Positions 14,165-41,591 are shown, counted from the stretch's first letter. The stretch: 46,892 nt of DNA from Chloroflexota bacterium (GCA_002707835.1 PANZ01000004.1:1-46892), one strand, 5' to 3'. Numbers and translations are program-made. The notes: generated by a model not told the origin, from the sequence alone.

Positions 14165-14205
14165 TTTCTACCCCTAAAATTATCTAATAGTGAAAAATTA
14201 ATATC

Positions 14206-14685
14206 TTATGAAGAGGAGTTTATTCGCTGTGCACTGTCTTGCACTGCACGAATAATTTTGTCATACCCAGTGCATCTACAAAGGTTACCAGCTAACCACC
14301 ATCGTATTTCTTCTTCACTTGGATCTGGATTTTCATCGAGCAGTGCTTTTGAAGCCATTAAGAACCCTGGGGTACAGATCCCACATTGTAAGGCAGCATT
14401 TTCAAGAAAAGCTTCTTGCAAAGGGTGTAATGAGTCTGCATCAGCTAGACCTTCAATTGTATTTAGCTCAGCACCTTCAATTTCAGCTGCCATTACACAA
14501 CATGAATTAACTAGACGTCCGTCCATAATTACTGCACAAGCACCGCAGTTCCCATTATTACAACCTTCTTTCGCACCCATTAACCCTAGGCGTTCTCGAA
14601 GTGCTTCTAGTAAGCTATCTCTTTCATCTGCTAAAAATTCACGATTTTCACCATTAATGATTGTGTTAAGAACTATTTTTGCCAT
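14206..14685 (-). CDS. (2Fe-2S)-binding small subunit of the molybdenum hydroxylase
   Basis: Both cluster motifs are present: CNNGNCGACAV (plant-type) and CGICTPGF...CRCTGY. Confidence 0.95.
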   Translation of the reverse strand: MAKIVLNTIINGENREFLADERDSLLEALRERLGLMGAKEGCNNGNCGACAVIMDGRLVNSCCVMAAEIEGAELNTIEGLADADSLHPLQEAFLENAALQCGICTPGFLMASKALLDENPDPSEEEIRWWLAGNLCRCTGYDKIIRAVQDSAQRINSSS

Positions 14686-14714
14686 ATTTTCCTCATTTCA
14701 ATTGTATTTGTAAG

Positions 14715-15581
14715 TTAGGATTGAGCTCTTTCAGCAGCTATTGCAAGAGTTCGCTTTGTTAAAACTCCTGCAAGATGTTTTCTCTGCTTAACAGAACCTC
14801 GCATATCTTCAATTGGTGTAGCTGCTTCACTAGCTGCATCGGCTGCCATATCTATAATTTCGTCATTTAATGCTTGTCCGATTAAAATTTCTGAAATAGC
14901 TGGAACCATGATTGGTGTAGCTGCGACGGCACCTAATGCAACTCTCGCATTCGTCACAGAACCATTTTCCAGAGCGAGGTATGTTCCACAATTGACTACT
15001 GCAATATCCATTTCATTTCGTGGAATGAATCTTTGCCAAGCTCCACCTGTTCCTGATTGGTGAGGTGCGATATGGATATTTACTACAAATTCACCAGCTT
15101 CTAAAACATTACGGCCCGGTCCAGTAAAAAAATCCTCTACGGGGACATCACGTTCACCTTGTGGACCTGCAATATGCGCTATTGCATTGATGGCCATCAT
15201 AGCTGTAAGTGAATCTCCTGCAGGTGAAGAGTTACAAAGATTCCCACCAAGGCTTGCTCGTCCTTGTATTGCAGTTCCTCCAATTACACTTGAAGCTTCT
15301 ACGATAGAGGGGTAGTGCTCCTTTACGTCCTTATTTCCATACACTTGATAAAGCGGGGTTGCAGCACCAATAACTAATCCAGTATCGGGACTATAACTGA
15401 CCCCAATTAATTCTGGGATATGTTTTACATCTACCAGAAGTGAAACATCTCTTTTACGCTCTCTTGCTTGAACGATTAGATCAGTTCCACCTGCTAGTAC
15501 TCTAGCTGTATCTCCCCCATTTTGGAGTAAACTAACAGCTTCACCAATGCTTGTGGCTCTTTGATATGTTAGTGATTGCAA
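14715..15581 (-). CDS. FAD-binding medium subunit of the molybdenum hydroxylase
   Basis: LAGGTDL and GGNLCNSSPAGD motifs of the CoxM/XdhB FAD-binding domain. TTG start. Confidence 0.9.
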   Translation of the reverse strand: MQSLTYQRATSIGEAVSLLQNGGDTARVLAGGTDLIVQARERKRDVSLLVDVKHIPELIGVSYSPDTGLVIGAATPLYQVYGNKDVKEHYPSIVEASSVIGGTAIQGRASLGGNLCNSSPAGDSLTAMMAINAIAHIAGPQGERDVPVEDFFTGPGRNVLEAGEFVVNIHIAPHQSGTGGAWQRFIPRNEMDIAVVNCGTYLALENGSVTNARVALGAVAATPIMVPAISEILIGQALNDEIIDMAADAASEAATPIEDMRGSVKQRKHLAGVLTKRTLAIAAERAQS

Positions 15582-16839: not shown

Positions 16840-17748
16840 TTATTTGAAGTTCTTTGCAACTTCTTCCATAAATTGATCATATGCTTCAATTTGTTGATCC
16901 AGTGAAGAACCTAAGTTGAAGTTGGGCAGTATGAACTCTGATACTCCTGCGTCGAGGTAGTCTTGCATAATTTGACATAACTGTTCAGAATTTCCTGCAA
17001 TCATTTGGCGTTCTGTATTTTCTAAGGCTTTTTCAATTATTTTCGGATCATCACTATGCACAACTAAGGCCTGCGCTGATCGTTGTATTTCATTTATATC
17101 GCGTCCTATTGTTGTTGCGTGTGCTTCTAAGATAGGGCCTTTTGCTGCTAGAACCGTAGGAGTTCCCCATACATTCCACTCATCTGCATATTGTGCAGCA
17201 ATGCGCATTGTCACTTTTTCTCCACCTCCTCCGATGAGTAATGGTGGTCCATTTTGTTGTAGGGGTTTTGGTGAAAGTGGAGCTTCTTGTAGAGTATAGA
17301 ATTCACCATCGAAATTAGTTCTTTCTTTCGAAAATAAGTTTTTTATTATTTGAACAGCTTCTTCGAGTCGGCGCATGCGCCCGCCTACAGTTGAATACTC
17401 GATCCCATAGGCACGGTGCTCGTTTTCTTGCCACCCTGCCCCTAGTCCAAAAACTAAACGTCCTTTGCTAATGATATCTACTTGTGCCGCCTGTTTCGCC
17501 AGTACTGCAGGATGTCGATATGTGTTGCCAGTAACCAAAGTTCCTAAACGTATCCTAGGTATTTTGACAGATAAAGCAGAAAGAATAGTCCATGCCTCGC
17601 CTGTGGGACCAGTATTATCGTCATCACGATTGGGCATGAAATGATCTGCAATCCACAAGCCATCCCATCCTGTTTTTTCTGCGTGTAGTGCTAGTTTTTC
17701 AATTTGATCGTAAGGTGCTGCAGAACCTGGCCAGATACTAAATTTCAT
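16840..17748 (-). CDS. luciferase-like monooxygenase family oxidoreductase (probable F420- or FMN-dependent)
   Basis: MKFSIWPG...GWDGLWIADHFMPN N-terminus and GLGAGWQENEH segment, typical of the LLM-class F420-dependent oxidoreductases. AGGAAG RBS. Confidence 0.85.
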   Translation of the reverse strand: MKFSIWPGSAAPYDQIEKLALHAEKTGWDGLWIADHFMPNRDDDNTGPTGEAWTILSALSVKIPRIRLGTLVTGNTYRHPAVLAKQAAQVDIISKGRLVFGLGAGWQENEHRAYGIEYSTVGGRMRRLEEAVQIIKNLFSKERTNFDGEFYTLQEAPLSPKPLQQNGPPLLIGGGGEKVTMRIAAQYADEWNVWGTPTVLAAKGPILEAHATTIGRDINEIQRSAQALVVHSDDPKIIEKALENTERQMIAGNSEQLCQIMQDYLDAGVSEFILPNFNLGSSLDQQIEAYDQFMEEVAKNFK

Positions 17749-22283: not shown

Positions 22284-25200
22284 TTACCAAGTATCAATAT
22301 AGGGTCTTTTCTTATTAGTCCGTTTTGGAACAGGTGGGAGACTACGTAACCCGTTGGCAATCCATCTCCGTGTATCTGCAGGATCAATAACATCATCGAT
22401 ACCAAAATAGATTGCTGTATTTACCGCTTTAGCATTTTCATATTTTTCAGCAACCATTCTTTCATAAGCATCTATTCTTTCATCAGGATTCTCTATGGCA
22501 GCAAGATCGTCGCGATATCCAAGTTTTACAGCCCCTTCAATATTCATTCCCGCAAATTCTGCGGTTGGCCATGCAACAGTGAAAAATGGCACTAAAGAGC
22601 TAGCTCCACACATCGCTTGCACTCCTAGTCCATATGATTTTCTTATTACGATACCAAACATGGGGACGGACAAATTAGCCCCAGTGTTAAACATTCGTGC
22701 ACAGTGTCTGACTAAAGCCGTTCTTTCAACTTCAGGACCTACCATCATGCCTGGACAATCCATCAAACTAATAACAGGAAGATCGAAAGCGTCACATAAT
22801 TGAAGGAATCTTGCTCCTTTATCTGCTCCGTCACTATCGATAGCACCTGCAAGATGATGAGGGTTGTTTGCGATTAACCCGAGAGGTTTTCCTTCTATGC
22901 GAATGAAACAAGTAATAATCCCTACACCAAAATTTTCTCTGATTTCAAGGACTGAATCTTTATCGGCTAATGTTTTTATTATTTCCCGCATGTTGTACAT
23001 GCGTAGACGATTTTCAGGCACTATGTGTCGCATTGATCTTTGATCTGATTCCTCCCAATTTTCAATAGATCCTTGAAAGTATGATAAATATTTTTTTGCA
23101 ACACTTGTGGCTTCAGTTTCATCTTTGACAAGAATATCGACAACTCCATTTGGAACTTGAAAAGACATAGGTCCAACTTCTTCCGGTGTATAAACACCTA
23201 AGTTGCCTCCTTCAATCATGGCTGGTCCGCCCATTGCAATAGTCGAGTTCTCTGTTGCGATAATTACATCACAGCAGGCAAGTAGTGCGGTGTTTCCAGC
23301 GAAACAGCGCCCTGAATTGACGCCTACTAAAGGCACTAAACCACTAAGTTTTGAAAATTGTGTGAATGTGTAGGTATCAACTGCAGCGCTACCTTCTCGT
23401 CCTGTATCACCAGGTCGTCCACCACCACCTTCAGAGTACAGAATCACAGGAAGCATGTATCGATGAGCAAGGTCGTACATACGGTCTTGTTTATAGTGGT
23501 TGCGATTACCTTGCGTTCCTGCAAAAACTGTGTAGTCATAATGCACTGCAATGGATCTCGCATTTTCTTTGCCAACTAAATCTTCATTGATTTGACCTGT
23601 CCCAGCCACTAAACCATCAGCAGGAGTTCGTTCACGTAGCCATTGTTCCGTCCTACGTGAACGCTGTGCTGCTACTACTAAAGGACCAAATTCAGTAAAT
23701 GTATCTGCATCGAATAGATCACTTAAATTTTCCCGTGCTGTACGTTGTCCTTTTGAGTGTCTACGTTCAACTGCGTCAGGTCGATTTTCATCAAAAATAT
23801 ATGATCGACGTTCATTAAGTTCCTCCAAATCGGAACGAATGAAATCGAGGTCGATATTATCATTAGAACCTTCATATTCATCTGTGCTGTCTATTTCCTC
23901 CACGTAAATTAGTGCAAAACCTTCTCGAATGACATCTCCTATTGATATATGTACTTCTCGTACAATACCTGAACAACTTGCTTCGATGACATGTTCCATT
24001 TTCATAGCTTCCATTACTGCTATGGGTTGTCCTTTTAAGACTCGATCTCCCTCTGCAACATTAATTTCTAAAATGGTTCCTTGAATTGGCGCAAATATTC
24101 CTTCAACACCTTCAGTATCAATTGACTGACTTGTGTTCTGTTGTACTTCATTTGTTTGCAGATTTTGTGAATGTTTTACAGCTGCATCGTGTGCAAAAAG
24201 CGCTAGGGGATCTTTGCTTTCAATTTGTGCTCCCGCAAATCCAGTATCATTCTCGACCTTTGCAGTTGTATTGATTGAATATCGTTGTTCGATCAATGCT
24301 GAATTTTCAACTAATTCCTTTATGTTTTCATCAATAAAGCGTGTGTAGAAATTACCAGTTATAAAATCTTGGTGTTTTAGGATTGTTTGTAAAAATTGAA
24401 TATTGGTGGTGATTCCTTCTATTCGAAATTCATTGAGTGCTCTAAGTGATTTTGCTGCTGCTTTTTCAAATTGTGAGGATTTCGAATGGATGATTAGCTT
24501 TGCTAGTAGAGAGTCAAAAGATGGACTTGTTTCATAACCTGTGTAACCAAAACCATCTACTCTAATTCCCGGTCCCCCTGGTATGTCGTAGGCAGTTAGT
24601 ACTCCACCTGATGGTCGAATATTTCCATTATTATCGAATGCTTCCATATTGACTCGAGTTTGAATAGAGTATCCCGTCGTAGTGATATTTTTTTGTTCAT
24701 CCAAGCCAAGATCCTTGAGGCTTACGCCCTGTGCAATATGAAGTTGCGATTGGACAATATCTACACCAGTGACTTCTTCAGTGACAGTATGTTCGACTTG
24801 AAGACGTGCATTAGCCTCTATAAAAACGAAGGGCTCTCCTCCTTCATCAGAATTAGTATTTACCAAAAATTCAAAAGTTCCTAAACTTTGGTAATTCACT
24901 TTTTTTGCAAACTGTACAGCGGCGGTACTAATTTTTTCTCTTAATGCTTCAGGAAGATATGGTGCCGGTGCGATTTCAATTAATTTTTGGTGGCGTCGTT
25001 GCACACTACATTCTCGTTCACCTAGATGTATTATTTTACCAGTATGGTCACCAATGATTTGTACTTCTATGTGTCGAGCCCTAGGTAAAAATTCTTCGAT
25101 ATATAAGTCTTCATTTCCAAAAGCAATTCTTGCCTCAACTTGACAGCTCTTAAATGCACTTTCAAGCTCAGCTAAATCAGTTACTGCACGACTCCCTCGC

Positions 25201-25697
25201 CCTCCTCCTCCAGCCATTGCTTTGATCATTACAGCAGGATTTGATCCTAATGATTGAAAAAATTCAGAAGCTTCTTCTAATGTTATTGAGTGACTGATTC
25301 CATTTAGGGTGGGGATGCCAATTTCTTTGGCTGCAGCAATTGCCTGACCTTTATTACCAAACAATTCTAAATTCTCAATTGAAGGCCCTACAAAAACTAG
25401 ACCTTCTTCTTTACAGCGTTGTGCGAACAGAGAATTTTCAGACAAAAACCCATAACCTGGATGAATTGCATCACATCCATTAATTTTTGCTTGTTCAATG
25501 ATGTTTTCAATATTGAGATAAGCAGTGGCCCCTTTTTCTTCTAATGAAATTGAGTTATCAGCAGCTTGAGTATGTATTGAATTAGCGTCATCAGTCGAAA
25601 AGATTGCTGTAGTTTTTATTCCTATGTCTTCAGCTGCACGGATTATTCGAATAGCTATTTCACCACGATTTGCGACTAGTAGATTTGAAAGCACCAT
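22284..25697 (-). CDS. single-chain biotin-dependent acyl-CoA carboxylase (biotin carboxylase + BCCP + carboxyltransferase fused, LCC-like)
   Basis: The first ~450 aa form an ATP-grasp biotin carboxylase (MAGGGGRG, EANARLQVEHTVTE). The biotinyl domain has AVMEAMKMEH (Lys codon at 24000-24002). The C-terminal ~520 aa form a crotonase-fold carboxyltransferase (AccD/PccB-like). AAGGAAA RBS. Confidence 0.92.
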   Translation of the reverse strand: MVLSNLLVANRGEIAIRIIRAAEDIGIKTTAIFSTDDANSIHTQAADNSISLEEKGATAYLNIENIIEQAKINGCDAIHPGYGFLSENSLFAQRCKEEGLVFVGPSIENLELFGNKGQAIAAAKEIGIPTLNGISHSITLEEASEFFQSLGSNPAVMIKAMAGGGGRGSRAVTDLAELESAFKSCQVEARIAFGNEDLYIEEFLPRARHIEVQIIGDHTGKIIHLGERECSVQRRHQKLIEIAPAPYLPEALREKISTAAVQFAKKVNYQSLGTFEFLVNTNSDEGGEPFVFIEANARLQVEHTVTEEVTGVDIVQSQLHIAQGVSLKDLGLDEQKNITTTGYSIQTRVNMEAFDNNGNIRPSGGVLTAYDIPGGPGIRVDGFGYTGYETSPSFDSLLAKLIIHSKSSQFEKAAAKSLRALNEFRIEGITTNIQFLQTILKHQDFITGNFYTRFIDENIKELVENSALIEQRYSINTTAKVENDTGFAGAQIESKDPLALFAHDAAVKHSQNLQTNEVQQNTSQSIDTEGVEGIFAPIQGTILEINVAEGDRVLKGQPIAVMEAMKMEHVIEASCSGIVREVHISIGDVIREGFALIYVEEIDSTDEYEGSNDNIDLDFIRSDLEELNERRSYIFDENRPDAVERRHSKGQRTARENLSDLFDADTFTEFGPLVVAAQRSRRTEQWLRERTPADGLVAGTGQINEDLVGKENARSIAVHYDYTVFAGTQGNRNHYKQDRMYDLAHRYMLPVILYSEGGGGRPGDTGREGSAAVDTYTFTQFSKLSGLVPLVGVNSGRCFAGNTALLACCDVIIATENSTIAMGGPAMIEGGNLGVYTPEEVGPMSFQVPNGVVDILVKDETEATSVAKKYLSYFQGSIENWEESDQRSMRHIVPENRLRMYNMREIIKTLADKDSVLEIRENFGVGIITCFIRIEGKPLGLIANNPHHLAGAIDSDGADKGARFLQLCDAFDLPVISLMDCPGMMVGPEVERTALVRHCARMFNTGANLSVPMFGIVIRKSYGLGVQAMCGASSLVPFFTVAWPTAEFAGMNIEGAVKLGYRDDLAAIENPDERIDAYERMVAEKYENAKAVNTAIYFGIDDVIDPADTRRWIANGLRSLPPVPKRTNKKRPYIDTW

Positions 25698-25720: not shown

Positions 25721-28141
25721 TTAATTTTCCTGAGAAGTTTCATATAACGTCCCGGTAATTCTATCTTTGACTAATTCCTTATACCTTTGTATCCCGATAT
25801 CTAATTCTTGTAAAAAAACCTCTTGACTATGTTCTCCAACACAGGGTGATGGTCTAATACCTGGATTAGGTGAATGTGATAATTTCCAAGGTCGTAAAGG
25901 TAAATAAGTTGGACCTGTCTCAGGATGGTCGATTTCTTTGATAAACCCTCTGTCTAGAGAGGATTTACTTGGACTACTATAAACTTCATATAAAGGGACC
26001 ACACGCGCGGCAGCAATTCCAAGTTCACATAGATTATTCTCTAAGATTTTAGCATCTTGTTGAATAGTCCAATTCTCGATTAACAAATCTAAGCTCTTTT
26101 CATTTTTTTTACGATTTCGCATGCTGTTAAATTCAAGGTTTTTCAAATGAGGTATATCGGTGAATTGTACAAATTTTTCCCAAACATTGTCCGATTCAAT
26201 TGCTATTGCGATCCATTCATTATTCGTTGTTGGGTAAATATTATGAGGAGATATTCGAGGGTGGTGGTTGCCTTGGGGTTTTGCAATCGATCCTAACCCA
26301 TCATATTCAGCTACGGCATCTCCACATACTGTAATCATTGCTTCCAACATCGATAGTTCAATTCTTTGAGGTTTATTAATTATATCGCGCTGATATAAAG
26401 CTCCTATCACTGAACCTGCAAAATAGTAGGCAGCTACTGAATCTGGGTAGAGCCCTCCTGTATTCATACCGGCCTCATTTTCATATCCATGAATAGATGA
26501 CAAACCGGACATGGGCTCAATAGTGGTACCTATACCAGGGAAATCTTTATAAGGGCCATATGCTCCATATGATGAAATTGAAGCATAAATAATTTTGGGG
26601 CAAACTTCCTCAAGTTTTTCTAATGTAATACCCCAGCGTTCCATTACATTTGGTCTAAAATTATCTGCGAGAATGTCGAATTTTGGTAACATCTGCCAGA
26701 ACATCGACAGACCTTCTTCTTGTGATAAGTCAAGAGTAATTGCTCGTTTGTTCAGGTTTACAGAATTATAAAGACCTTGAGTATTTAGAGTGTGTTGTTT
26801 TTTGGCAGGATCTTTTATACCAGCCGGAATTGTGTCACGAGTACGCCGCCATACATCTTGTCGGTCGACTGTTTCAATTTGGATAACATCTGCACCAAGT
26901 AGTCCTAGTAGTTCAGTTCCAAAAGTACCCGACCATGCCTGTCCAAAGCTAAGTACACGAACTCCATGCAAGGGACCTTCTGAATGTGATGCGTTTTTTA
27001 CTGTTTGAGTTTTTTTTGAATTATTCGGGGATACACGTTTGAATGTCGAAGTATGTTGCCCGTGTTGAGGTGCTGATTTCTTCAGCTCCCAACTTACAGG
27101 AGTTGATTTTGTCCAGGCTCCTGGCATACGAATAGATTTGTCTAGTATAGAAGTTGTTCTTAAGAAATCACGTTGTTCTAGGTGCGGATTCTCAATGATA
27201 TCTTTCATATCTTGTACAACTCCTGAAACACATCTAAGTTCTGACAGGGCATGAAATAAGGGCCAACGTTCTAAATTGAAGAGCTCACGCGCTGCACCGG
27301 CTCGAACTGGGTCCAAATCTTTTGCATGTCGTCCTATATCTGGCACTAAATCAGGATGATCTGCGAATTCAGGAAGATTAAGTATATCCATTGCCTTTTG
27401 CCAATGATGCCAATCACCAAATGCTAAGGCTATCTGTCCGTCTGATGTTGAAAATAATGGATGAGGCTCTCCTCTTTGTCGTCCACCAGCGGGTCCATAA
27501 GTTGATCCAATACCTTGATATACCGCTGCTACTCCCCAAGGATGGACGGTAAGTGAGAATGCATCAAATTCACTGACATCTGCTAATTCATATGTTGGTG
27601 ATTGATCCTTTCGAAGTAATGCAGCGCTCGCTACCATGAAGCCGGCTATTCCAGCTATGTATCCGCTTTGTCTATTAGGCATCTGCAAAGGTGACTCATC
27701 TAGGTAGCCGTTGATATAGGCCCATCCAGTTCGTGCACTGTGAGTAAGATTATTACCAGAGACAGATGATAATTCTCCTTCGAGTCCGTGCGGTGTAATC
27801 GAAAGATGGATGGCGTTACTTTTTAATGATGCAATTAAATTTTGTAATTCTAAACTGATGGGGCTTGCCGTAGTAATAAGTATATCTGTTTGTGAAACGA
27901 GTTCGTTAATTTCATCAAGTCGCTCGTAAATTAAGGATGATTTGTTCCAATTAACATAGTTATGTAGAAGGCTATTTTCTTTTCCAGCTTCATTGTTTAT
28001 GAATGGAGGTTCATGTCTTAATGAATGTCCGAAATTTGATTCAGCTAAAATTACATCTGCACCGAGATCCCCAAACATTCTTGCAGCATAAGCTCCTGAG
28101 AGTCGGTCAGATAAATCTACGACACGTATATTTGTGTAAAT
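25721..28141 (-). CDS. tandem-fused double family III (CaiB/BaiF) CoA-transferase; start codon uncertain (first canonical ATG at 28078)
   Basis: Two complete family III modules joined by a low-complexity linker (…HGQHTSTFKRVSPNNSKKTQTVKNASHSEGPL…). The second module starts GVRVLSFGQAWSGTFGTELLGLLGADVIQIE. The matching start of the first module (NIRVVDLSDRLSGAYAARMFGDLGADVILAE) extends in frame upstream of the ATG at 28078. ATT at 28141 with AGGA 8 nt upstream is my best guess for the start. Confidence 0.8.
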   Translation of the reverse strand: MYTNIRVVDLSDRLSGAYAARMFGDLGADVILAESNFGHSLRHEPPFINNEAGKENSLLHNYVNWNKSSLIYERLDEINELVSQTDILITTASPISLELQNLIASLKSNAIHLSITPHGLEGELSSVSGNNLTHSARTGWAYINGYLDESPLQMPNRQSGYIAGIAGFMVASAALLRKDQSPTYELADVSEFDAFSLTVHPWGVAAVYQGIGSTYGPAGGRQRGEPHPLFSTSDGQIALAFGDWHHWQKAMDILNLPEFADHPDLVPDIGRHAKDLDPVRAGAARELFNLERWPLFHALSELRCVSGVVQDMKDIIENPHLEQRDFLRTTSILDKSIRMPGAWTKSTPVSWELKKSAPQHGQHTSTFKRVSPNNSKKTQTVKNASHSEGPLHGVRVLSFGQAWSGTFGTELLGLLGADVIQIETVDRQDVWRRTRDTIPAGIKDPAKKQHTLNTQGLYNSVNLNKRAITLDLSQEEGLSMFWQMLPKFDILADNFRPNVMERWGITLEKLEEVCPKIIYASISSYGAYGPYKDFPGIGTTIEPMSGLSSIHGYENEAGMNTGGLYPDSVAAYYFAGSVIGALYQRDIINKPQRIELSMLEAMITVCGDAVAEYDGLGSIAKPQGNHHPRISPHNIYPTTNNEWIAIAIESDNVWEKFVQFTDIPHLKNLEFNSMRNRKKNEKSLDLLIENWTIQQDAKILENNLCELGIAAARVVPLYEVYSSPSKSSLDRGFIKEIDHPETGPTYLPLRPWKLSHSPNPGIRPSPCVGEHSQEVFLQELDIGIQRYKELVKDRITGTLYETSQEN

Positions 28142-33609: not shown

Positions 33610-33724
33610 TATGCCTCTATCTCTAATATTTATCTAATATACCATGATTTGCATCAAGATATTTTCTTCAGTTTTTGATATGATGCCGCTAAATAGCACT
33701 GCTTTTTAGCTGAGAGAGAATTTG

Positions 33725-35434
33725 ATGACTACTACTACGAAGAGCAATTTTACGGATAGTGCCAATAATCTGTATGCATCTCTTGAAGAAAAAGTTATGG
33801 ATCGTGATCAAGTTGGTGCTAGTAATGTTTTCTATGAATTATTGAGGCAAGGACGTCCATTAAATGAGATGATTCGTGAAACTGTTCGTATCCACGCTCC
33901 GTATACTCATACACCCTTCCATCAACGTATTGATAATGGCGTTGTCAGATTTGTTAATAATGATCATTGTTTACTTAGCGCTCGTGCAAGTTGGCGTATG
34001 CCAGATTTCTTACCAGAGCGATTAAAATTTCTACCGATGGCACAGACGATTTGGTATGTACCAACTGGTCTTGATGTATGGAATCAATTACTCGGACGTG
34101 CACCTGGCCATTATGGCCGACGAGTCTATGATGAAGCGAAATTTCCTGAACCTCCTCTTCCTGAAGCGCACTGGGAGGACAGTGATGCTATGGATATAGA
34201 GGGATCACTTGATGAACGCCTTAATTATTGGTTGACATTGGTTCAATACAGCAAAGCTGAAGAGTCTTACGCTGTTTTCCGTGGTTTATTAAAAAATGAA
34301 AAAGATCGTCCACAAGTATTCGCTCATCTTATGTTTGCTGGACTTATCGATGTCCAAGATCGCATTTTGTATAACCGTAGTTACACCACAGGGCATAAGT
34401 CGTATCGAGCACGTGCCACAATTGAATTATCTAGTGCAGTTGGCTGGGAAAAAGCACACGACGTAATATATGCTGGAGTTCCTGATATTGCTGTTGGTCC
34501 ACACTGGTACTCTGCTTATGAAATGGCATGTGAGGTTGAGAAAAATTTTCTTGAACTGAATCCTCCAACTTCATCGTTGGCTCCTACACTTGTTACTACT
34601 ACTGATAGTAATCTTTTTGCGCAAGAAACAGATTTGTCACATGCGGAACAAGCAATGTTAATGCGTTCATTGTTAGAAGAAGTAGAACCTTCATACATTG
34701 AAGCTATTATCGGATTGTTGAAATCTGGAAAGTCCCCACAAAAAATACTCGATGCAATTCAAATTGCTGCTGCAGAAATTGTGCTTCGATGTGGGACACC
34801 ACAAAGCTTTTCAATGCCTCAGCATGGTTATGAATATACGAATACTCTTTCTTGGTTTTATGCTAATTTCCAGCATCCTCACAAAACAAAATTACTTTTT
34901 GTGGCGGGGTCTTTTATCAATCAGTGTGCGATGTTAATAAAGAACACTCCTGGTAATGGTCGTCCAACTTTTACTCCTCCTCAAGCAGCAGATGCTCTGT
35001 CCAAAGAAAAACTGTTGTCACAACTTGATGCTGCAATCACAGCACTACAACCTGATGAAGCAGCGTCCTGGACACAAGCTTACTTAGATGCCGGACACGA
35101 AAGAAGATCTTTGGTTGCGACCCTTACTTTTGCAGCTGCTAAGCAGGGCAATGATCCACATAATCAAGAAATTGGATTATGCATGATTGAAGATTATGCC
35201 CGTACCAGTTCTCCTTTACGAGATCGATTGTTATTGGCTTGTGCAAAACATACTGCTGGTCATATTAAATATGGCAATCCTATGGAATCGTACAGTCGTT
35301 TTGCTAGTGAATTTGATCTGCCTTCGACTACAGATGTAAACGGTCAGGCTGAGCCTTTCGAAGCGCTACTAGACGAATTGGAGGAAGTTCCATTGGAAGA
35401 TATTGAATCTACACCTCCAAGGATACAGTTATAA
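33725..35434 (+). CDS. hypothetical protein (569-570 aa, soluble, His-rich motifs, no recognised family)
   Basis: Long intact ORF with a GAGAGAGA RBS. It stops 4 nt before the malate synthase G start. No TM segments or known motifs recognised. Confidence 0.6.
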   Translation: MTTTTKSNFTDSANNLYASLEEKVMDRDQVGASNVFYELLRQGRPLNEMIRETVRIHAPYTHTPFHQRIDNGVVRFVNNDHCLLSARASWRMPDFLPERLKFLPMAQTIWYVPTGLDVWNQLLGRAPGHYGRRVYDEAKFPEPPLPEAHWEDSDAMDIEGSLDERLNYWLTLVQYSKAEESYAVFRGLLKNEKDRPQVFAHLMFAGLIDVQDRILYNRSYTTGHKSYRARATIELSSAVGWEKAHDVIYAGVPDIAVGPHWYSAYEMACEVEKNFLELNPPTSSLAPTLVTTTDSNLFAQETDLSHAEQAMLMRSLLEEVEPSYIEAIIGLLKSGKSPQKILDAIQIAAAEIVLRCGTPQSFSMPQHGYEYTNTLSWFYANFQHPHKTKLLFVAGSFINQCAMLIKNTPGNGRPTFTPPQAADALSKEKLLSQLDAAITALQPDEAASWTQAYLDAGHERRSLVATLTFAAAKQGNDPHNQEIGLCMIEDYARTSSPLRDRLLLACAKHTAGHIKYGNPMESYSRFASEFDLPSTTDVNGQAEPFEALLDELEEVPLEDIESTPPRIQL

Positions 35435-35438
35435 AAAT

Positions 35439-37622
35439 ATGAATGAAAAATACGTTGATATAGCAAACCTCAAAGTTGCTGAACCACTGTACCAGTTAGT
35501 TGATGAAACTATTCTTCCTGGGTTAGAAATTTCAAGTAATCAAGTTTGGAAATTACTTAGCCAGCTTGTCACAGATTTAGGGCCTCGTAATCAAGATCAC
35601 TTAGATTTACGTGATGATCTTCAAAATCAAATTGATGAATGGTTAAAAATCTCTGCCGATAATAAGTTCTCTGAAGAAGACTCGTTGACATTTCTTCAAT
35701 CAATAGGATATTTGGTTCCTGAGGGTCCAGATTTTCAAGTTGTAACTACTAATGTCGACACAGAAATTGCCCATTTGGCAGGACCACAACTTGTTGTTCC
35801 TGTTGATAATGCTCGTTATGCATTGAATGCAGCTAATGCTCGTTGGGGGAGCTTATTCGATGCACTATATGGCACTAATATTATTTCTGAAAATAATGGA
35901 GCTGAAAAAACCTCTGGGTATAATCCAGTGCGAGGCGAACAGGTAATTACATACGTTAATATTTTGTTGGATGATATTATTCCAATACAAAATGCCCTAT
36001 GGAATGATGTGCGTTCATTTGCAGTGCAAGATTCCAAACTTTCTTTCGTAATGTCCGATGGATCGCTTGCCAGTTTAGTTGATCCTGAAAATTTTGTTGG
36101 CTATACAGGAGATCTTAGTAACTTATCAAGTGTTTTATTTCAACATAATGATTTACATATTGATTTGCTTATCGATCCTCATGACCCTGTAGGGGCCCAG
36201 CATTCTGCATCAATTAAAGATGTGATGTTGGAAGCTGCAGTAACTACAATTATGGATTGCGAAGATGCTGTTGCTGCAGTTGATGCAGAAGATAAAGTTA
36301 ATGTCTATGCAAACTGGTTAGGTTTAATGAAAGGGACTCTAGAGACAACTTTTATCAAAGCGGATGAAGAAATTATCCGAACGCTGAATGATGATCGAAG
36401 TTATACAGCCAGCGATGGTTCTGAAATAACACTTTCCGCTAGAAGCCTCATGTTAATTCGACATGTCGGAGCTCACATTTATACAGATGTAGTCACTACT
36501 GAATCTGGTGCATTGATCCCTGAAACTTTCTTAGATGCTGTCATTACTATTTTGGCATCTATACATGACATCAATAATCAGGGATTTTTGAAGAATAGTC
36601 TTCAGAAGAGTGTCTATGTTGTAAAACCAAAACAACATGGTCCTGATGAAATTGCCTTATCTGTAGAATTGTTTGAACGTATTGAAGAAGCTTTTGGTAT
36701 TGAAAGCGGGACTGTAAAAATTGGGATAATGGATGAAGAACGTCGAACTACTTTAAATCTTAAAGAATGTATTCGTGCTGCAAAAGATCGAGTAATTTTC
36801 ATTAATACTGGTTTTCTCGATAGAACAGGCGATGAAATACATACACATATGCATGCAGGCGCAATGATTCCAAAACCTGACATTAAATCTGCACGTTGGA
36901 TGGTTGCATATGAAGATTGGAATGTGGATATAGGGATTGCGACAGGACTTGCAGGAAATGCTCAGATAGGGAAGGGTATGTGGGCTCAACCTGATGAAAT
37001 GTTAGCGATGCTTGAAACTAAACATGGGCATCCCTATGCAGGTGCTAGTTGTGCATGGGTTCCATCTCCAACTGCAGCTACTTTACATTCTATTCACTAT
37101 CACCAAACCTATGTCCGTGAAAGGCAACGTATTATTGCAGATCGTACTCACGCTTCAATAAATGATTTACTTTCTCCGCCTTTACTAAAAGATCAAATAC
37201 TTAGTTCTGAAGATATTCAAAATGAGTTGGAGAACAACTTACAAGGAATTTTAGGATATGTTGCTCGTTGGGTAGAACAAGGTATTGGATGTTCTAAAGT
37301 TCCTGATATTAATGACGTAGGATTAATGGAAGATCGCGCAACTTTACGTATATCAAGTCAGCATGTGAGTAATTGGTTGTTACATGGGCTTATTGATGAA
37401 AATCAAGTATTGAAAACTATGGAAAAAATGGCAGAAGTTGTCGATCGACAAAATATTGATGATGCAGGATACACACCAATGGCCTCTGATTTTGAGAATA
37501 GCTTTGCCTTTCAAGCTGCTGTGGCATTAATTTTTGAAGGTAGAGAACAGCCGAATGGATATACAGAACTTTTGTTATGGAAGTATCGAAAAGCATATAA
37601 AGCTAATACCTTAATTGATTAA
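35439..37622 (+). CDS. glcB: malate synthase G
   Basis: Collinear with E. coli GlcB along the whole length (GPQLVVPVDNARYALNAANARWGSL, MDCEDAVAAVDAEDK, GIMDEERRTTLNLK, INTGFLDRTGDE, AWVPSPTAATLH, GCSKVPDI...MEDRATLRISSQH). The ATG at 35439 gives a 727-aa protein. Confidence 0.97.
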   Translation: MNEKYVDIANLKVAEPLYQLVDETILPGLEISSNQVWKLLSQLVTDLGPRNQDHLDLRDDLQNQIDEWLKISADNKFSEEDSLTFLQSIGYLVPEGPDFQVVTTNVDTEIAHLAGPQLVVPVDNARYALNAANARWGSLFDALYGTNIISENNGAEKTSGYNPVRGEQVITYVNILLDDIIPIQNALWNDVRSFAVQDSKLSFVMSDGSLASLVDPENFVGYTGDLSNLSSVLFQHNDLHIDLLIDPHDPVGAQHSASIKDVMLEAAVTTIMDCEDAVAAVDAEDKVNVYANWLGLMKGTLETTFIKADEEIIRTLNDDRSYTASDGSEITLSARSLMLIRHVGAHIYTDVVTTESGALIPETFLDAVITILASIHDINNQGFLKNSLQKSVYVVKPKQHGPDEIALSVELFERIEEAFGIESGTVKIGIMDEERRTTLNLKECIRAAKDRVIFINTGFLDRTGDEIHTHMHAGAMIPKPDIKSARWMVAYEDWNVDIGIATGLAGNAQIGKGMWAQPDEMLAMLETKHGHPYAGASCAWVPSPTAATLHSIHYHQTYVRERQRIIADRTHASINDLLSPPLLKDQILSSEDIQNELENNLQGILGYVARWVEQGIGCSKVPDINDVGLMEDRATLRISSQHVSNWLLHGLIDENQVLKTMEKMAEVVDRQNIDDAGYTPMASDFENSFAFQAAVALIFEGREQPNGYTELLLWKYRKAYKANTLID

Positions 37623-38200
37623 GATTTTTTAACGGGTTGCCCTAAAGTTTCCATTAATCTGTTCGCCCAACAAAAAATTGCTGCAGATAATGTGAGATCA
37701 AGGATTTCAAGATCCGTCAAATTTTCGATTTCGAGTGCGTTCAATTCTGATGTGGATGCATTAGAAGGAGTCTCTGATAAAGCTATCGAATAATTAAATA
37801 TTGCTTGTTCTCTAGATGGTAAATCGGCATTAGATTCTTGTTCAAAAATTTCATCGATGACTTCTGTTTGAGTTGTTAAATCAATATACCTACTGGCATG
37901 AACTGCGGTGCAATAAATACATTTGTTGAATTCTGATGCACCTATCGCACCAAGTTCTCGATCAGATCTGGAAAGACCTCCAGGTCCTCCATACATGATC
38001 GTGTTAAACAGTGGATTACGATGGATGAGTGATTCAGGATCATGTGCTAGTACCAAAACATAATCTGAGATTTTTGTATTTGAAGGAGTTACTTCTAATG
38101 CTTCTAACTGTAATGCTGTAGCATTTTCAAGATCAATTGGTTCTAAATGGGGACTCCATTTAGGCACTTGAGTTGTGAATTCATTGACTATTTCTGTCAT
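37619..38200 (-). CDS. AhpD/carboxymuconolactone-decarboxylase (CMD) family peroxidase-related protein
   Basis: CIYCTAVH (CxxC...H) AhpD-type motif within a helical CMD domain. The start overlaps the upstream gene stop (ATGA). Confidence 0.8.
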   Translation of the reverse strand: MTEIVNEFTTQVPKWSPHLEPIDLENATALQLEALEVTPSNTKISDYVLVLAHDPESLIHRNPLFNTIMYGGPGGLSRSDRELGAIGASEFNKCIYCTAVHASRYIDLTTQTEVIDEIFEQESNADLPSREQAIFNYSIALSETPSNASTSELNALEIENLTDLEILDLTLSAAIFCWANRLMETLGQPVKKS

Positions 38201-38721
38201 TTATTTTCCTTATTACTTTTATTAACTAAAAGTCGTATTCCTTGAATTAGTCTGACTTGATAGTTCACAAATCCAACCAGTTGCGTAATGCGTACTATGT
38301 CTGCTTCTGCTACGCCAGCGGTTTTTAATTCGTCGATACTAGCTTTAGTAGCCATTTGAGGAGAATGTGTCAGTAAATCAACATGATTGATAATAGTGCG
38401 CAGCCAATCATTCGTTTCTGCGTTAGGGAGAATGTGAGGATCACAGAATATTCCTACCATGTCTAATGATTCGTCTGAATCTTCCAGAAGTTTTAAGTAA
38501 TGCGATTGTAATTCATCTTCATGGATTGCTGAGATTCGTGTGGCAATTACAGCACGTAACGCATATGAGATTCCTCCGACATCATGCGGATGCAGCACTG
38601 CATCATGTGAATTTTCAGTCAATTGGAGAATCTCTGAACGCTGTTCTAACACTGATAGGACAGAAGAATTTTCCTTGACTCCAGCAATCCGAAGTGTGAC
38701 AGAATTAATGTTCACTAGCAA
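38197..38721 (-). CDS. CMD-domain protein without CxxC (partner of the adjacent AhpD-like protein)
   Basis: Helical protein with the RIAGV...SVL...R N-terminal pattern and a C-terminal ITQLVGFVNYQVRLIQGIRLL segment. I recall this from the CMD protein family that occurs as a gene pair with AhpD-like proteins. No Cys pair. Confidence 0.6.
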   Translation of the reverse strand: MLVNINSVTLRIAGVKENSSVLSVLEQRSEILQLTENSHDAVLHPHDVGGISYALRAVIATRISAIHEDELQSHYLKLLEDSDESLDMVGIFCDPHILPNAETNDWLRTIINHVDLLTHSPQMATKASIDELKTAGVAEADIVRITQLVGFVNYQVRLIQGIRLLVNKSNKENK

Positions 38722-38739
38722 TATTGCCCTTCAAAAATA

Positions 38740-39054
38740 TCAATGGCCAACTGAACTGAGTGGATTCACAGTTACTCTGCCTAATGTTTCTGATCCGGTA
38801 TTGGTGAAATGATGTTCACTATTCGGGGGGACGAGAACCGCATCACCTTGCTTAATGTCATATTCCACACCTTCGACCCAGAGTATCCCTGATCCCTTAA
38901 CTATGTAAGCTTCATGTTCCCATGGATGTGTGTGATGCTGGCTGGACTCACCAGGAAGATGTTCTATATACAACATGACATAGTTTGGAACACCATCTTC
39001 AAAACTTAGGATAGGGTTTTTATTATCGCTACTGTTCTTAATTACTGGTTTCAT
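38740..39054 (-). CDS. single-domain cupin (metal-binding)
   Basis: Cupin motif 1 (HTHPWEHEAYIVKGSG) and motif 2 (GDAVLVPPNSEHHFTN). AAGGAG RBS. Confidence 0.85.
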   Translation of the reverse strand: MKPVIKNSSDNKNPILSFEDGVPNYVMLYIEHLPGESSQHHTHPWEHEAYIVKGSGILWVEGVEYDIKQGDAVLVPPNSEHHFTNTGSETLGRVTVNPLSSVGH

Positions 39055-39073
39055 AAAACTCCTTCTATACGCA

Positions 39074-40339
39074 TTATTTGAATGATAGCGGATCGTTTGC
39101 TGTTACTCCAAGTGCGGCTAACTCTGTTATCTCTTCTTCAGACATACCTGCTACTTCACGTAATACTTCTTCAGTATGTTCACCTAAAAGTGGTGCAGGT
39201 AATTGTGTTGCTCCTGGTGTTTTCGAAAATTGAAATGGTCGACTTAAGTAGGGGCGTGAATCAGATGGTCCACGTCCGCTATATTCCCAAAACCCACTAC
39301 TTACTAATTGTGGATCATGTACTAATTGCTCTCCGGAGTTCACCACTCCTGCAGGAACGTTTGCAAGTTGCAGGATTTCCATAGCAATAAACGCATCCTT
39401 TTGACTTGTCCATTGAGCTATATGTTGATCAATTTCATCATGATGCTCACGTCTTCCTTCTGTATTAGTAAAACGTGGGTCATTTTCTAATACTGAATTG
39501 TCCATACATTGAGTAAGTGCTTTCCAATCGTCGTTATTTTCCACGCTTATGGATATCCACTTGTCATCTCCAAGACATGGATAGATACCTTGTGGAGCAA
39601 ATGTTCGATGACGGTTCCCTATAGGCACTTGAATATTATTGTTCATCGTATAGTCCATGACCATGTCACCAAGAATGGATGATGTCATTTCACGTTGTGA
39701 AAAATCGATATAAACACCCTTACCAGTTTCTCGATGTTGGCGAATTGCACTAAGAACTATTCCTACCGATGCTACCGCTACAAGAGGATCAGGGAACAAT
39801 ACTCCAGAAGTACTTGGATCACCCCCCAGATATCCTGTAATTGAAGCTACTCCAGCTGTTTGCTCCAACGTTACTCCAAAGGATCCATATGCTACTTCTG
39901 GGCCAGTTGCACCTTGACTACCTAAAGTCACCATAATTATGTCCGGCTTAATTTGCCGGAGATCTTCATAACTTAAACCAAATCGTGCCATTACACCTTG
40001 TCTATAATTTTCGATGACAACATCTGAATTCATTGCTAAGCGTTTAAATGCGTCGACACCTCGTTCGTGGGTGAGATCGAGACATATATTCCGCTTGCTA
40101 CGATTTCGATCTAAATATCTTCCTGTTCGGTCCCAAGGCTTATCAGTGGGTTCATTATCGAGATACATTCCTTGGTCTATCTGTGGGTTATGTGCATCAC
40201 CACGTGCAATATCCATACGCCTAGCAGATTCTACTTTAATGATGTCAGCACCTAAGTCACCTAAAATTTTCGTACATGTAGGGCCTGCCCAGACTTGGGA
40301 TGGGTCAAGTATGCGTATGCCTTCAAGTGGTAAGTTCAT
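39074..40339 (-). CDS. family III (CaiB/BaiF) CoA-transferase
   Basis: GIRILDPSQVWAGPTCTKILGDLGADIIKVE N-terminus. Candidate catalytic Asp in LFPDPLVAVASVGIVLSAI. AAGGAA RBS. Confidence 0.9.
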   Translation of the reverse strand: MNLPLEGIRILDPSQVWAGPTCTKILGDLGADIIKVESARRMDIARGDAHNPQIDQGMYLDNEPTDKPWDRTGRYLDRNRSKRNICLDLTHERGVDAFKRLAMNSDVVIENYRQGVMARFGLSYEDLRQIKPDIIMVTLGSQGATGPEVAYGSFGVTLEQTAGVASITGYLGGDPSTSGVLFPDPLVAVASVGIVLSAIRQHRETGKGVYIDFSQREMTSSILGDMVMDYTMNNNIQVPIGNRHRTFAPQGIYPCLGDDKWISISVENNDDWKALTQCMDNSVLENDPRFTNTEGRREHHDEIDQHIAQWTSQKDAFIAMEILQLANVPAGVVNSGEQLVHDPQLVSSGFWEYSGRGPSDSRPYLSRPFQFSKTPGATQLPAPLLGEHTEEVLREVAGMSEEEITELAALGVTANDPLSFK

Positions 40340-40364
40340 TTGTTCCTTCTTTAAATTAAAACTA

Positions 40365-41591
40365 TTAGACTATGCCGCTATTTTTCATTTGATTAATTTT
40401 CTCGTTGTCCCATCCCAAAAGGGAACCATACACTTCCTCATTATGCTGTCCCAGTGTAGGTGCTGGTTTAAGATCCCATTGATCACCTCCCCATTTCATT
40501 GGTAATCCTGGGTAGGTTAATTTTCCTGCAATGGGATGTTCGAGTTCTACAAAGTATTCTCTATGTTGATATTGAGGGGATTCAATCAAGTCTTTCGCAT
40601 CACATATATAACCCCATGTCATACCTCTTTCTTGTGAAGCATGGTAGAGGTCCTGTTTTTTCTTATCACTTGCCCATTCTGCTATAAGTGCTGTGATTTC
40701 ATCTTGGTTTTTTTCACGTGCATCCATATCTTTGAATTTTTCATCATGTTCAAGTTCTGGTCTTCCAATCATTTCACATACTCCTGGCCAGTCTGTTTGG
40801 CGGAGCGTGATTCCAACTTGCCCATCGGCAGTTTTATAGAGTGGGGAGGATGCTAGTCGGCGACCACGTTCTTTTCCAGTTAGGATGTAAGAGAGTCCTG
40901 AATACATTTGTGCCACACCTATACCAGCTTGCGCTGATACATCAACATGTTGTCCAACACCGCTGATTTCCTTATAGGTTGAGGCTACTAATGCTCCTGA
41001 GAAGCCTGATAATCCACAAAAATATTCTGCTGGTTCGCCACCTATTTGTAGTGGTTCCCTCGAAGGATCTCCAGTTACAAAGGCCAATCCTCCTAAAGAT
41101 TGTGCAGTTATATCATTCCCTCGGTAACCTTTATAAGGTCCAGTTTGACCAAAAGGCGAAAGTGAGACAAGGATTTTAGCAGGGTTAATTTGCTCAATTG
41201 CGGAATATCCAATGCCCCATTCATCCATTTTTCCTGGAAGAAAATTTTCGACAATAATATCCGCCCATTCAATCAATTGAGTGGCTATATCAATTCCTGT
41301 TTCATTATCGAGGGATAGTGTGATTCCTTTTTTGTTCATATTGAGATATAAGAATTGGCCACTTTTTTCTGGATGTGGAATATTGTCGATGAATGGTCCT
41401 CGTGAACGTGAAATATCTCCAGATTGAGGTGATTCAATTTTTATGACTTCTGCTCCCATTACAGCAAGCATTTTTGTTGCGATTCCTCCAGAGATGCCCT
41501 GTGAGAAGTCGAGTACTTTAATGCCATCTAAAGGTGAAGCTACGTTTGACAAGGTTTTTCCTTCCGTAAAATCATTAATTTTGGGCATCAT
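40365..41591 (-). CDS. family III (CaiB/BaiF) CoA-transferase paralogue (Glu at the position expected for the catalytic Asp)
   Basis: GIKVLDFSQGISGGIATKMLAVMGAEVIKIE N-terminus. The active-site segment reads GGEPAEYFCGLSGFSGALVAS. Confidence 0.88.
   Translation of the reverse strand: MMPKINDFTEGKTLSNVASPLDGIKVLDFSQGISGGIATKMLAVMGAEVIKIESPQSGDISRSRGPFIDNIPHPEKSGQFLYLNMNKKGITLSLDNETGIDIATQLIEWADIIVENFLPGKMDEWGIGYSAIEQINPAKILVSLSPFGQTGPYKGYRGNDITAQSLGGLAFVTGDPSREPLQIGGEPAEYFCGLSGFSGALVASTYKEISGVGQHVDVSAQAGIGVAQMYSGLSYILTGKERGRRLASSPLYKTADGQVGITLRQTDWPGVCEMIGRPELEHDEKFKDMDAREKNQDEITALIAEWASDKKKQDLYHASQERGMTWGYICDAKDLIESPQYQHREYFVELEHPIAGKLTYPGLPMKWGGDQWDLKPAPTLGQHNEEVYGSLLGWDNEKINQMKNSGIV

Follow-up and report, generated by a model that had tools for sequence, protein, structure and literature searches.

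SmtA/SmtB of Chloroflexus, the succinyl-coenzyme A (CoA):L-malate CoA-transferase, is a two-subunit family III enzyme acting on a C4 dicarboxylate that is tied to malate and glyoxylate metabolism. BbsEF is a two-subunit transferase that depends on succinyl-CoA, and acyl-CoA dehydrogenase and enoyl-CoA hydratase come next in its pathway (PMC10818641). For the AhpD fold, YciW of Escherichia coli has been described as a protein with two AhpD domains (PMC11429811). It is a member of the CysB regulon and affects cysteine tolerance, and its biochemical function is not known (PMC10821248). Here, we describe a block of five adjacent genes in a 46,892-nucleotide (nt) stretch of DNA from a Chloroflexota bacterium (GCA_002707835.1, PANZ01000004.1:1-46892), referred to below as the window. 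The block encodes two family III CoA-transferase proteins (CoAT1 and CoAT2), a cupin, a protein termed CMD4, and an AhpD-like protein termed AhpD5, and lies next to glcB. On balance, and with modest confidence, we read the locus as a lineage-specific operon of three modules, namely a transferase pair, a cupin, and an AhpD pair, and not as five separate pathway enzymes. Each part belongs to a recognized, partly uncharacterized kind: BbsEF/SmtAB-type transferases, YciW-like or TIGR04029/TIGR04030-like pairs, and TM1459-like cupins.

CoAT1 and CoAT2 both match PF02515 (CoA_transf_3) over profile positions 1-366, with E values of 1.6e-88 (297.7 bits) and 8.1e-95 (318.5 bits), respectively. A genome search anchored on CoAT2 returned 80 loci with identities of 33-72%, from groups that include Chloroflexota, Gammaproteobacteria, and Desulfobacterales. 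Enough upstream sequence for counting partners was present in 78 of the 80, and in 67 of these 78 an open reading frame (ORF) resembling CoAT1 ends less than 200 nt from the CoAT2-like start on the same strand. The two subunits differ at the active site. With the catalytic aspartate defined as Asp169 of Frc/YfdW, alignment to solved structures places Asp184 of CoAT2 on the catalytic Asp of BbsF, SUGCT, and 10uh. Glu189 of CoAT1 occupies the catalytic-Asp position of YfdW, SUGCT, and BbsF, and CoAT1 is thus without that Asp. The asymmetry extends to related loci, where the downstream, CoAT2-like subunits carry the catalytic Asp in 79 of 80 cases. The upstream, CoAT1-like subunits from 67 loci have Glu (36), Gln (16), Asp (6), Ala (5), or, once each, Gly, Phe, and His. 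Single chains in which both domains are fused in the same order also occur (P0060, P0100, P0113, P0116, and a 785-amino-acid (aa) ORF of the window itself); they have Glu, Asp, Gln, His, or Gly at the Asp position of the N-terminal half and Asp in the C-terminal half.

Because the catalytic Asp is found only in the second subunit, the pairing is conserved, and fused forms exist, CoAT1 and CoAT2 almost certainly make up one heteromeric enzyme of the BbsEF/SmtAB type, as judged from their sequences. CoAT1 would probably be its non-catalytic subunit, and its catalytic position does not appear to be kept for catalysis, because orthologues at 45-65% identity differ among Glu, Asp, Ala, and Gln. The preliminary description of this DNA had offered two analogies for the transferases. 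That with the SmtA/SmtB pair is upheld by the paired subunits, the Asp asymmetry, and the fused forms. That with YfdW/YfdE, which implied two CoA-transfer steps by two independent enzymes, was rejected on the same three observations.

Assignment to a characterized CoA-transferase family was also considered and dropped. Seven NCBIfam equivalog models, including Frc/YfdW, YfdE, succinate-glutarate CaiB, mesaconate CoA-transferase, CaiB, and Mct, all scored far below their cutoffs (best for CoAT1, 239 bits against 504; best for CoAT2, 203 against 750). Among the closest described systems is BbsEF, in which two adjacent paralogous family III genes also encode one enzyme. The best solved structure for CoAT2 is 9fn0_B, a benzylsuccinate CoA-transferase subunit (225 bits, E value 1e-65, next structure 153 bits), with 97 bits to the 9fn0_A chain of the same enzyme. 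With a CoAT1-like query from Desulfobacterales, 9fn0_A ranked sixth. CoAT2 orthologues at 64-71% identity adjoin genes for enoyl-CoA hydratase (ECH), acyl-CoA dehydrogenase (ACAD), and MaoC-like proteins, as bbsEF lies beside bbsG and bbsH. The locus differs from BbsEF in that it is without bss/bbs context, no beta-oxidation genes occur in the window, the host appears to be aerobic, and CoAT1 is not specifically BbsE-like. The likeness to SmtA/SmtB, a two-subunit family III transferase from the same phylum, is one of description and not of sequence comparison. It is offset by the absence of a malyl-CoA lyase gene among the window ORFs scanned and by a neighboring GlcB that is ordinary and encoded on the opposite strand.

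The fused 785-aa protein of the window has Gly in the N-terminal half and Asp in the C-terminal half at the catalytic position. Directly downstream of it lies the gene for a 1137-aa protein with biotin carboxylase, biotin carboxyl carrier protein, and carboxyltransferase domains. The domain content of the two suggests a CoA-ester carboxylation module.

The second pair, CMD4 and AhpD5, resembles the first in that one subunit is catalytic and the other degenerate. AhpD5 matches TIGR01926 (peroxid_rel) with 167.1 bits (cutoff 81.8) and Pfam CMD at 1e-7 (32 bits), and it contains the motif CIYCTAVH within the site E82-x11-C94-x2-C97-x3-H101. All four residues (E82, C94, C97, and H101) are invariant in 34 AhpD5 homologues of 57-87% identity. 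CMD4 has no match to Pfam CMD. It is homologous to the AhpD5 family in profile alignment (hhalign probability 95%, E value 3.6e-8), in which a gap takes the place of the CxxC segment. The top Foldseek matches of its AlphaFold2 model (predicted local distance difference test 83, predicted TM-score 0.81) are AhpD or peroxidase-related structures with TM-scores of 0.62-0.65. By profile alignment and model, CMD4 is a predicted degenerate AhpD-fold paralogue without the CxxC site. The preliminary description had called it free of cysteines; one non-conserved cysteine (C93) is present, and the lack of a CxxC motif stands.

The pair is conserved on its own. A metagenome search anchored on AhpD5 gave 80 loci, all at 54-73% identity except one at 96% (L102). 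A CMD4-like ORF abuts the start of the AhpD5-like gene in all 71 of the 71 loci with upstream sequence, and a 4-nt overlap is retained in 61 of them (ATGA in 58 and GTGA in three). This conserved overlap is read as a signature of translational coupling. The last two genes of the block had been described earlier as a recurring pair of the Avi_7170 and Avi_7169 families. The recurrence is borne out by this adjacency, and the best-matching models and the gene order agree with the family names: in TIGR04029/TIGR04030 pairs, a CMD protein without CxxC is likewise followed directly by an alkylhydroperoxidase-domain protein. Membership did not hold, as both proteins score below the trusted cutoffs (CMD4 against TIGR04029 CMD_Avi_7170, 6e-24 and 85.7 bits with a cutoff of 100.75; AhpD5 against TIGR04030 perox_Avi_7169, 135.8 bits with a cutoff of 233.15). 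Related pairs from L001, L005, and Rhizobium etli likewise score under these cutoffs. By these scores, CMD4 and AhpD5 are relatives of the two families and not members, and form a putative sister clade; the TIGR04029 and TIGR04030 families are themselves uncharacterized.

The site of Mycobacterium tuberculosis AhpD, Glu118/Cys130/Cys133/His137, has the same E-x11-C-x2-C-x3-H spacing as AhpD5, and the two proteins share a fold. AhpD5 differs in having an obligate degenerate partner, and its nearest structures in the PDB (3c1l, 2prr, 6k40, and 2oyo) are of uncharacterized 'peroxidase-related' proteins. YciW (b1287, 375 aa; L096, 4981-6108) is collinear with the pair, CMD4 and TIGR04029 matching its residues 120-177 and AhpD5 and TIGR01926 matching its residues 189-373. 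In contrast to the pair, YciW is one fused polypeptide in which the cysteines are spaced differently, and the similarity is weak (pairwise E values of 3e-7 and 1e-5). The collinearity provides a Rosetta-stone argument for a CMD4-AhpD5 complex and would tie the family to the CysB (sulfur) regulon.

A decarboxylase role, which the preliminary description had derived from the CMD fold, was rejected. Among the NCBIfam matches at E<=0.01 there was no carboxymuconolactone-decarboxylase model, the generic Pfam CMD match being the only one of this kind, and no pca genes lie near AhpD5. Because AhpD5 has the invariant E/CxxC/H site and matches no decarboxylase model, the AhpD pair most likely carries out thiol redox chemistry, by analogy with proteins that share this site, and not decarboxylation. 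The pair is a sharply defined and widespread target for characterization.

Elsewhere, each pair keeps different company. In a count of Pfam families among 130 ORFs flanking the AhpD pair, the commonest were flavoproteins of the Pyr_redox_3/Lys_Orn_oxgnase type (20), Octopine_DH (9), MFS (7), LysR (6), and solute-binding proteins (5); neither the cupin family nor CoA_transf_3 was among the 25 commonest. With dedicated hidden Markov models, a gene resembling flavin monooxygenases (FMO) was found near the pair in 30 of 42 loci, in 14 of them directly upstream on the same strand, and an octopine-dehydrogenase-like gene was found in 20 of 49. The nearest AhpD5 relatives beyond the clade that has the block (65-73% identity) are without an FMO-like gene, a cupin, or transferases. 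None of the 80 CoAT2-anchored genome loci has a relative of CMD4 or AhpD5 within 10 kb, and a weakly related cupin occurs in one.

In Proteobacteria, the AhpD pair is part of a recurring cassette (L115, L117, L143, L156, L160, L181 on R. etli p42e, L182 on an Aminobacter plasmid, and others). It consists of an uncharacterized, class-B-like FMO, genes for CMD4-like and AhpD5-like proteins, and often a gene of the octopine/nopaline-dehydrogenase family. The FMO is approximately 490-510 aa long with a weak ArsO-like match, and ABC transporters and LysR regulators are usually close. The R. etli and Aminobacter plasmids carry the cassette with its octopine-dehydrogenase-like gene and with ABC transporters nearby, and the surroundings in R. 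etli also include a class V aminotransferase, an MBL-fold hydrolase, and a TauE sulfite exporter.

The third module is a single-domain cupin that matches Cupin_2 (PF07883) at 7e-18 (64.5 bits). Both metal-cupin motifs named in the preliminary description are complete in the sequence, as H41-x-H43-x3-H47-E48 and G70-x5-P76-x4-H81-x3-N85. Its highest-ranking PDB matches are to the TM1459 family of Mn cupins (1e-10), to RemF (1e-8), and to DddK (2.4e-6, 31 bits). TM1459 of Thermotoga maritima is thus the best solved relative and shares the H-x-H-x3-H...H ligand pattern, whereas identity is low; no reaction can be assigned to the cupin from it, because the natural function of TM1459 is itself not known. 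The cupin gene lies directly upstream of the AhpD pair, the slot taken by the gene for an O2-activating flavoenzyme in the 14 loci noted above. This correspondence is an analogy and not evidence.

The full block was found only in four loci (L010, L006, L097, and L102), and is lineage-restricted and local to one clade of marine Chloroflexota. L010 carries it at 97-100% identity together with glcB. L006 carries it at 77-96% identity, and L007 to L009 are shorter contigs with part of it. L102 (AhpD5 96%) is the sole locus with the cupin and the transferases among the 80 AhpD5-anchored metagenome loci, and L097 (AhpD5 87%), found by look-up, has them as well. Where enough flank is present, in L097 and L102, the flanks of the block are syntenic too. 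In L097, the synteny takes in a response regulator, a histidine kinase, an MFS transporter, a beta-lactamase-like protein, PCuAC, the block, and glcB, and further a 570-aa protein, DinB, DoxX, a 2-hydroxyacid dehydrogenase, a short-chain dehydrogenase, a nitroreductase, and the fused transferase. Because the whole neighborhood is syntenic, conservation of the block in L097 shows only the relatedness of the genomes. As a unit, the block is conserved in near relatives only. This comes close to no conservation outside this genome, the outcome that had been named beforehand as speaking against a conserved five-gene system.

The positions of the genes are given in Table 1. The minus-strand operon described earlier is confirmed in its coordinates, spacing, domains, and selection, and the Pfam and NCBIfam profile matches uphold the domain assignments (CoA_transf_3 twice, Cupin_2, CMD, and the Avi-type pair). 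From the first to the fifth gene, ORF calling gives spacings of 25, 19, and 18 nt and, at the last junction, the 4-nt ATGA overlap, and on the minus strand each of genes 2 to 5 is preceded by an AGGA- or GGAG-like ribosome-binding site. The reference for selection was the syntenic relative L097, whose metagenome contig is 261 kb long. Because the ratio of nonsynonymous to synonymous substitution rates (dN/dS) is 0.017-0.18 at dS values of 0.64-1.0, all five ORFs are real genes under purifying selection. The ratios are 0.056 for CoAT1, 0.060 for CoAT2, and 0.017 for the cupin, the best conserved of the five genes at 96% identity.

Table 1. Positions of the block genes, of glcB, and of other features discussed in the text (window coordinates)
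Feature	Position	Strand	Description
CoAT1	40365..41591	(-)	408 aa as called; family III CoA-transferase subunit
CoAT2	39074..40339	(-)	421 aa; family III CoA-transferase subunit
cupin	38740..39054	(-)	104 aa; single-domain, Cupin_2
CMD4	38197..38721	(-)	174 aa, TTG start; predicted AhpD-fold partner without CxxC
AhpD5	37619..38200	(-)	193 aa; AhpD-like, CxxC
glcB	35403..37622	(+)	malate synthase G; context only, not shown to be part of the system
570-aa protein	33722..35434	(+)	directly upstream of glcB
785-aa ORF	25721..28078	(-)	two fused family III CoA-transferase domains
1137-aa protein	22284..25697	(-)	biotin carboxylase, biotin carboxyl carrier protein, and carboxyltransferase domains
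luciferase-like flavin monooxygenase	16840..17748	(-)	near the molybdenum hydroxylase
molybdenum hydroxylase	11864..15581	(-)	three subunits, CoxL/M/S-like

The true start of CoAT1 is probably not the annotated ATG. A TTG at 41552, which would give 395 aa, sits behind a GGAGAGGA/GGAAGGA site. Because the upstream ATGATG stretch (41552-41591) is frame-shifted and followed by a stop in the relatives L097 and L006, where the equivalent TTG is the start, the TTG is preferred. The five genes are probably transcribed together. A promoter and terminator scan found no terminator-like site within the block on the coding (minus) strand; overall, it did not outperform shuffled sequence (promoter-like sites, 30 with 33 expected; terminator-like sites, three with six expected). 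Neither an Rfam family nor a tRNA was detected in the window.

Malate synthase G is assigned by NF002825 with 1104 bits. The gene is convergent to the block, and the 3' ends of glcB and AhpD5, with their stop codons, overlap by 4 nt (37619-37622). By its orientation, glcB is predicted not to be co-transcribed with the block, and it lies next to the block only in the near relatives L010, L097, and L102 (87-99% identity). It had been suggested that the product of the five genes feeds the adjacent malate synthase; the convergent orientation and the narrow adjacency speak against this, and no supporting evidence was found. The stop overlap leaves no intergenic space for terminators, and transcripts from each side must run antisense into the other.

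In the three-module reading, Asp184 of CoAT2 would form the acyl-anhydride and thioester intermediates, and CoAT1 would be the structural, non-catalytic partner in an interlocked dimer. Activation of a carboxylic acid by this enzyme would need no ATP. A substituted dicarboxylate is the probable acid, with succinyl-CoA or a related thioester of CoA as the probable donor. For the cupin, a metal-dependent reaction with O2 or peroxide, or an isomerization, is plausible. CMD4 and AhpD5 would form a translationally coupled two-subunit protein of the AhpD fold, a split form of the YciW architecture, which may reduce a hydroperoxide or an oxidized sulfur, thiol, or substrate species.

Several points weigh against this reading. 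CoAT1 scores 158 bits with 9fn0_A, 165 with 9fn0_B, and 193 with SUGCT, which does not mark it as a BbsE-type subunit. Glu is the commonest state of the upstream subunits, and Glu189 of CoAT1 could conceivably still act as a nucleophile. The evidence for the role of the AhpD pair consists of a motif and an analogy of neighborhoods, and scans of the 46.9-kb window found no ORF of the AhpC/TSA family (AhpC-type peroxiredoxin), although AhpD alkylhydroperoxidases act together with an AhpC peroxiredoxin whose gene is usually close by. Finally, the tight spacing and the low dN/dS of the cupin are also compatible with an integrated pathway in this lineage.

In the main rival reading, the three modules have no functional relation and just lie head to tail in a compact genome, so that co-transcription would have no pathway meaning. 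We consider this unlikely, though worth keeping in view. It would account well for the conservation of each pair alone among quite different neighbors, for the confinement of the block to one clade with general synteny, and for a window densely packed with unrelated oxidoreductase genes. It fits less well with gaps of 18-25 nt, individual ribosome-binding sites, and the lack of an internal minus-strand terminator-like site, which point to a single regulated transcript, and with a cupin in the slot that an O2-activating flavoenzyme gene takes in 14 other loci.

A bolder extension of the three-module reading would have this lineage of marine, SAR202-like Dehalococcoidia combine the modules in a new oxidative route, dependent on CoA, for a recalcitrant carboxylic acid. 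The transferase would make the CoA ester, an Mn or Fe cupin would oxygenate or cleave it, and the hydroperoxide or oxidized intermediate formed would be reduced by a heteromer of CMD4 and AhpD5. More generally, CMD4-AhpD5, as a split YciW, may be a two-subunit redox enzyme that is widespread and uncharacterized and that would serve O2-activating enzymes, namely flavin monooxygenases in Proteobacteria and the cupin here. We regard this extension, together with its general form, as decidedly improbable.

Very doubtful, too, is the proposal from which the analysis started, that all five proteins form one new pathway for a dicarboxylic or lactone-type acid, with two CoA transfers, isomerization or oxygenation by the cupin, and decarboxylation by a CMD-type protein, and with glyoxylate or acetyl-CoA passing to malate synthase. 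The spacing is operon-like, L010, L097, and L102 keep all five genes together with glcB at low dN/dS, and no known pathway has the same composition. The two transferases, however, behave as one enzyme, AhpD5 has an invariant CxxC redox site without a match to a decarboxylase family, and glcB is convergent and by orientation not co-transcribed. Wherever the block occurs, the genes around it are syntenic as well; neither the other metagenome loci anchored on AhpD5 nor any of the 80 genome loci anchored on CoAT2 contain it. The data give no good grounds for a new pathway of five steps that feeds malate synthase, and the five-gene arrangement by itself does not indicate one.

A system for dimethylsulfoniopropionate (DMSP) or a similar osmolyte, in which the paired CaiB-like domains would act as DddD (CoA-transferase/lyase), whose two-domain architecture they resemble, and the cupin, by its weak match, as a DddK-type lyase, is the least credible of all: the cupin is much nearer to TM1459, His47 and Ala49 stand where the DddK motif has a metal-binding Glu and, two residues past it, a catalytic Tyr (this Tyr of DddK being out of register), neither transferase has a DMSP-related family match, and the transferase orthologues adjoin beta-oxidation genes. 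In its favor, SAR202 CaiB-type proteins with best matches to DddD have been reported (PMC5395668).

Homologues and genome loci are labelled Chloroflexota or Dehalococcoidia, and remoter ones 'SAR202 cluster'; the best species-representative genome has 71-72% identity at CoAT2. The window also encodes cytochrome c oxidase, a molybdenum hydroxylase, a luciferase-like monooxygenase, many short-chain dehydrogenases, and the second, fused CoA-transferase. This content fits a SAR202-type repertoire, and the lineage appears, from the homologue labels, to be SAR202-like; the cytochrome oxidase genes indicate a presumably aerobic host. Among the paralogous families of SAR202, the CaiB/BaiF transferases are prominent (PMC5395668). 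Where CaiB-like genes lie side by side in SAR202-type genomes, annotation should treat them as subunits of a single enzyme and not as independent paralogues, which alters the estimates of catabolic breadth drawn from the large CoA-transferase expansion.

Other features of the window are of minor interest. The 570-aa protein has no Pfam or NCBIfam match and 584 representative homologues, 134 of them at E<=1e-30. Its dS against L097 is 0.26, far below that of all neighboring genes (0.64-1.0). The molybdenum hydroxylase comprises MoCoBD, 2Fe-2S, and FAD subunits, and both it and the luciferase-like flavin monooxygenase are ordinary in the oxidative repertoire of the group.

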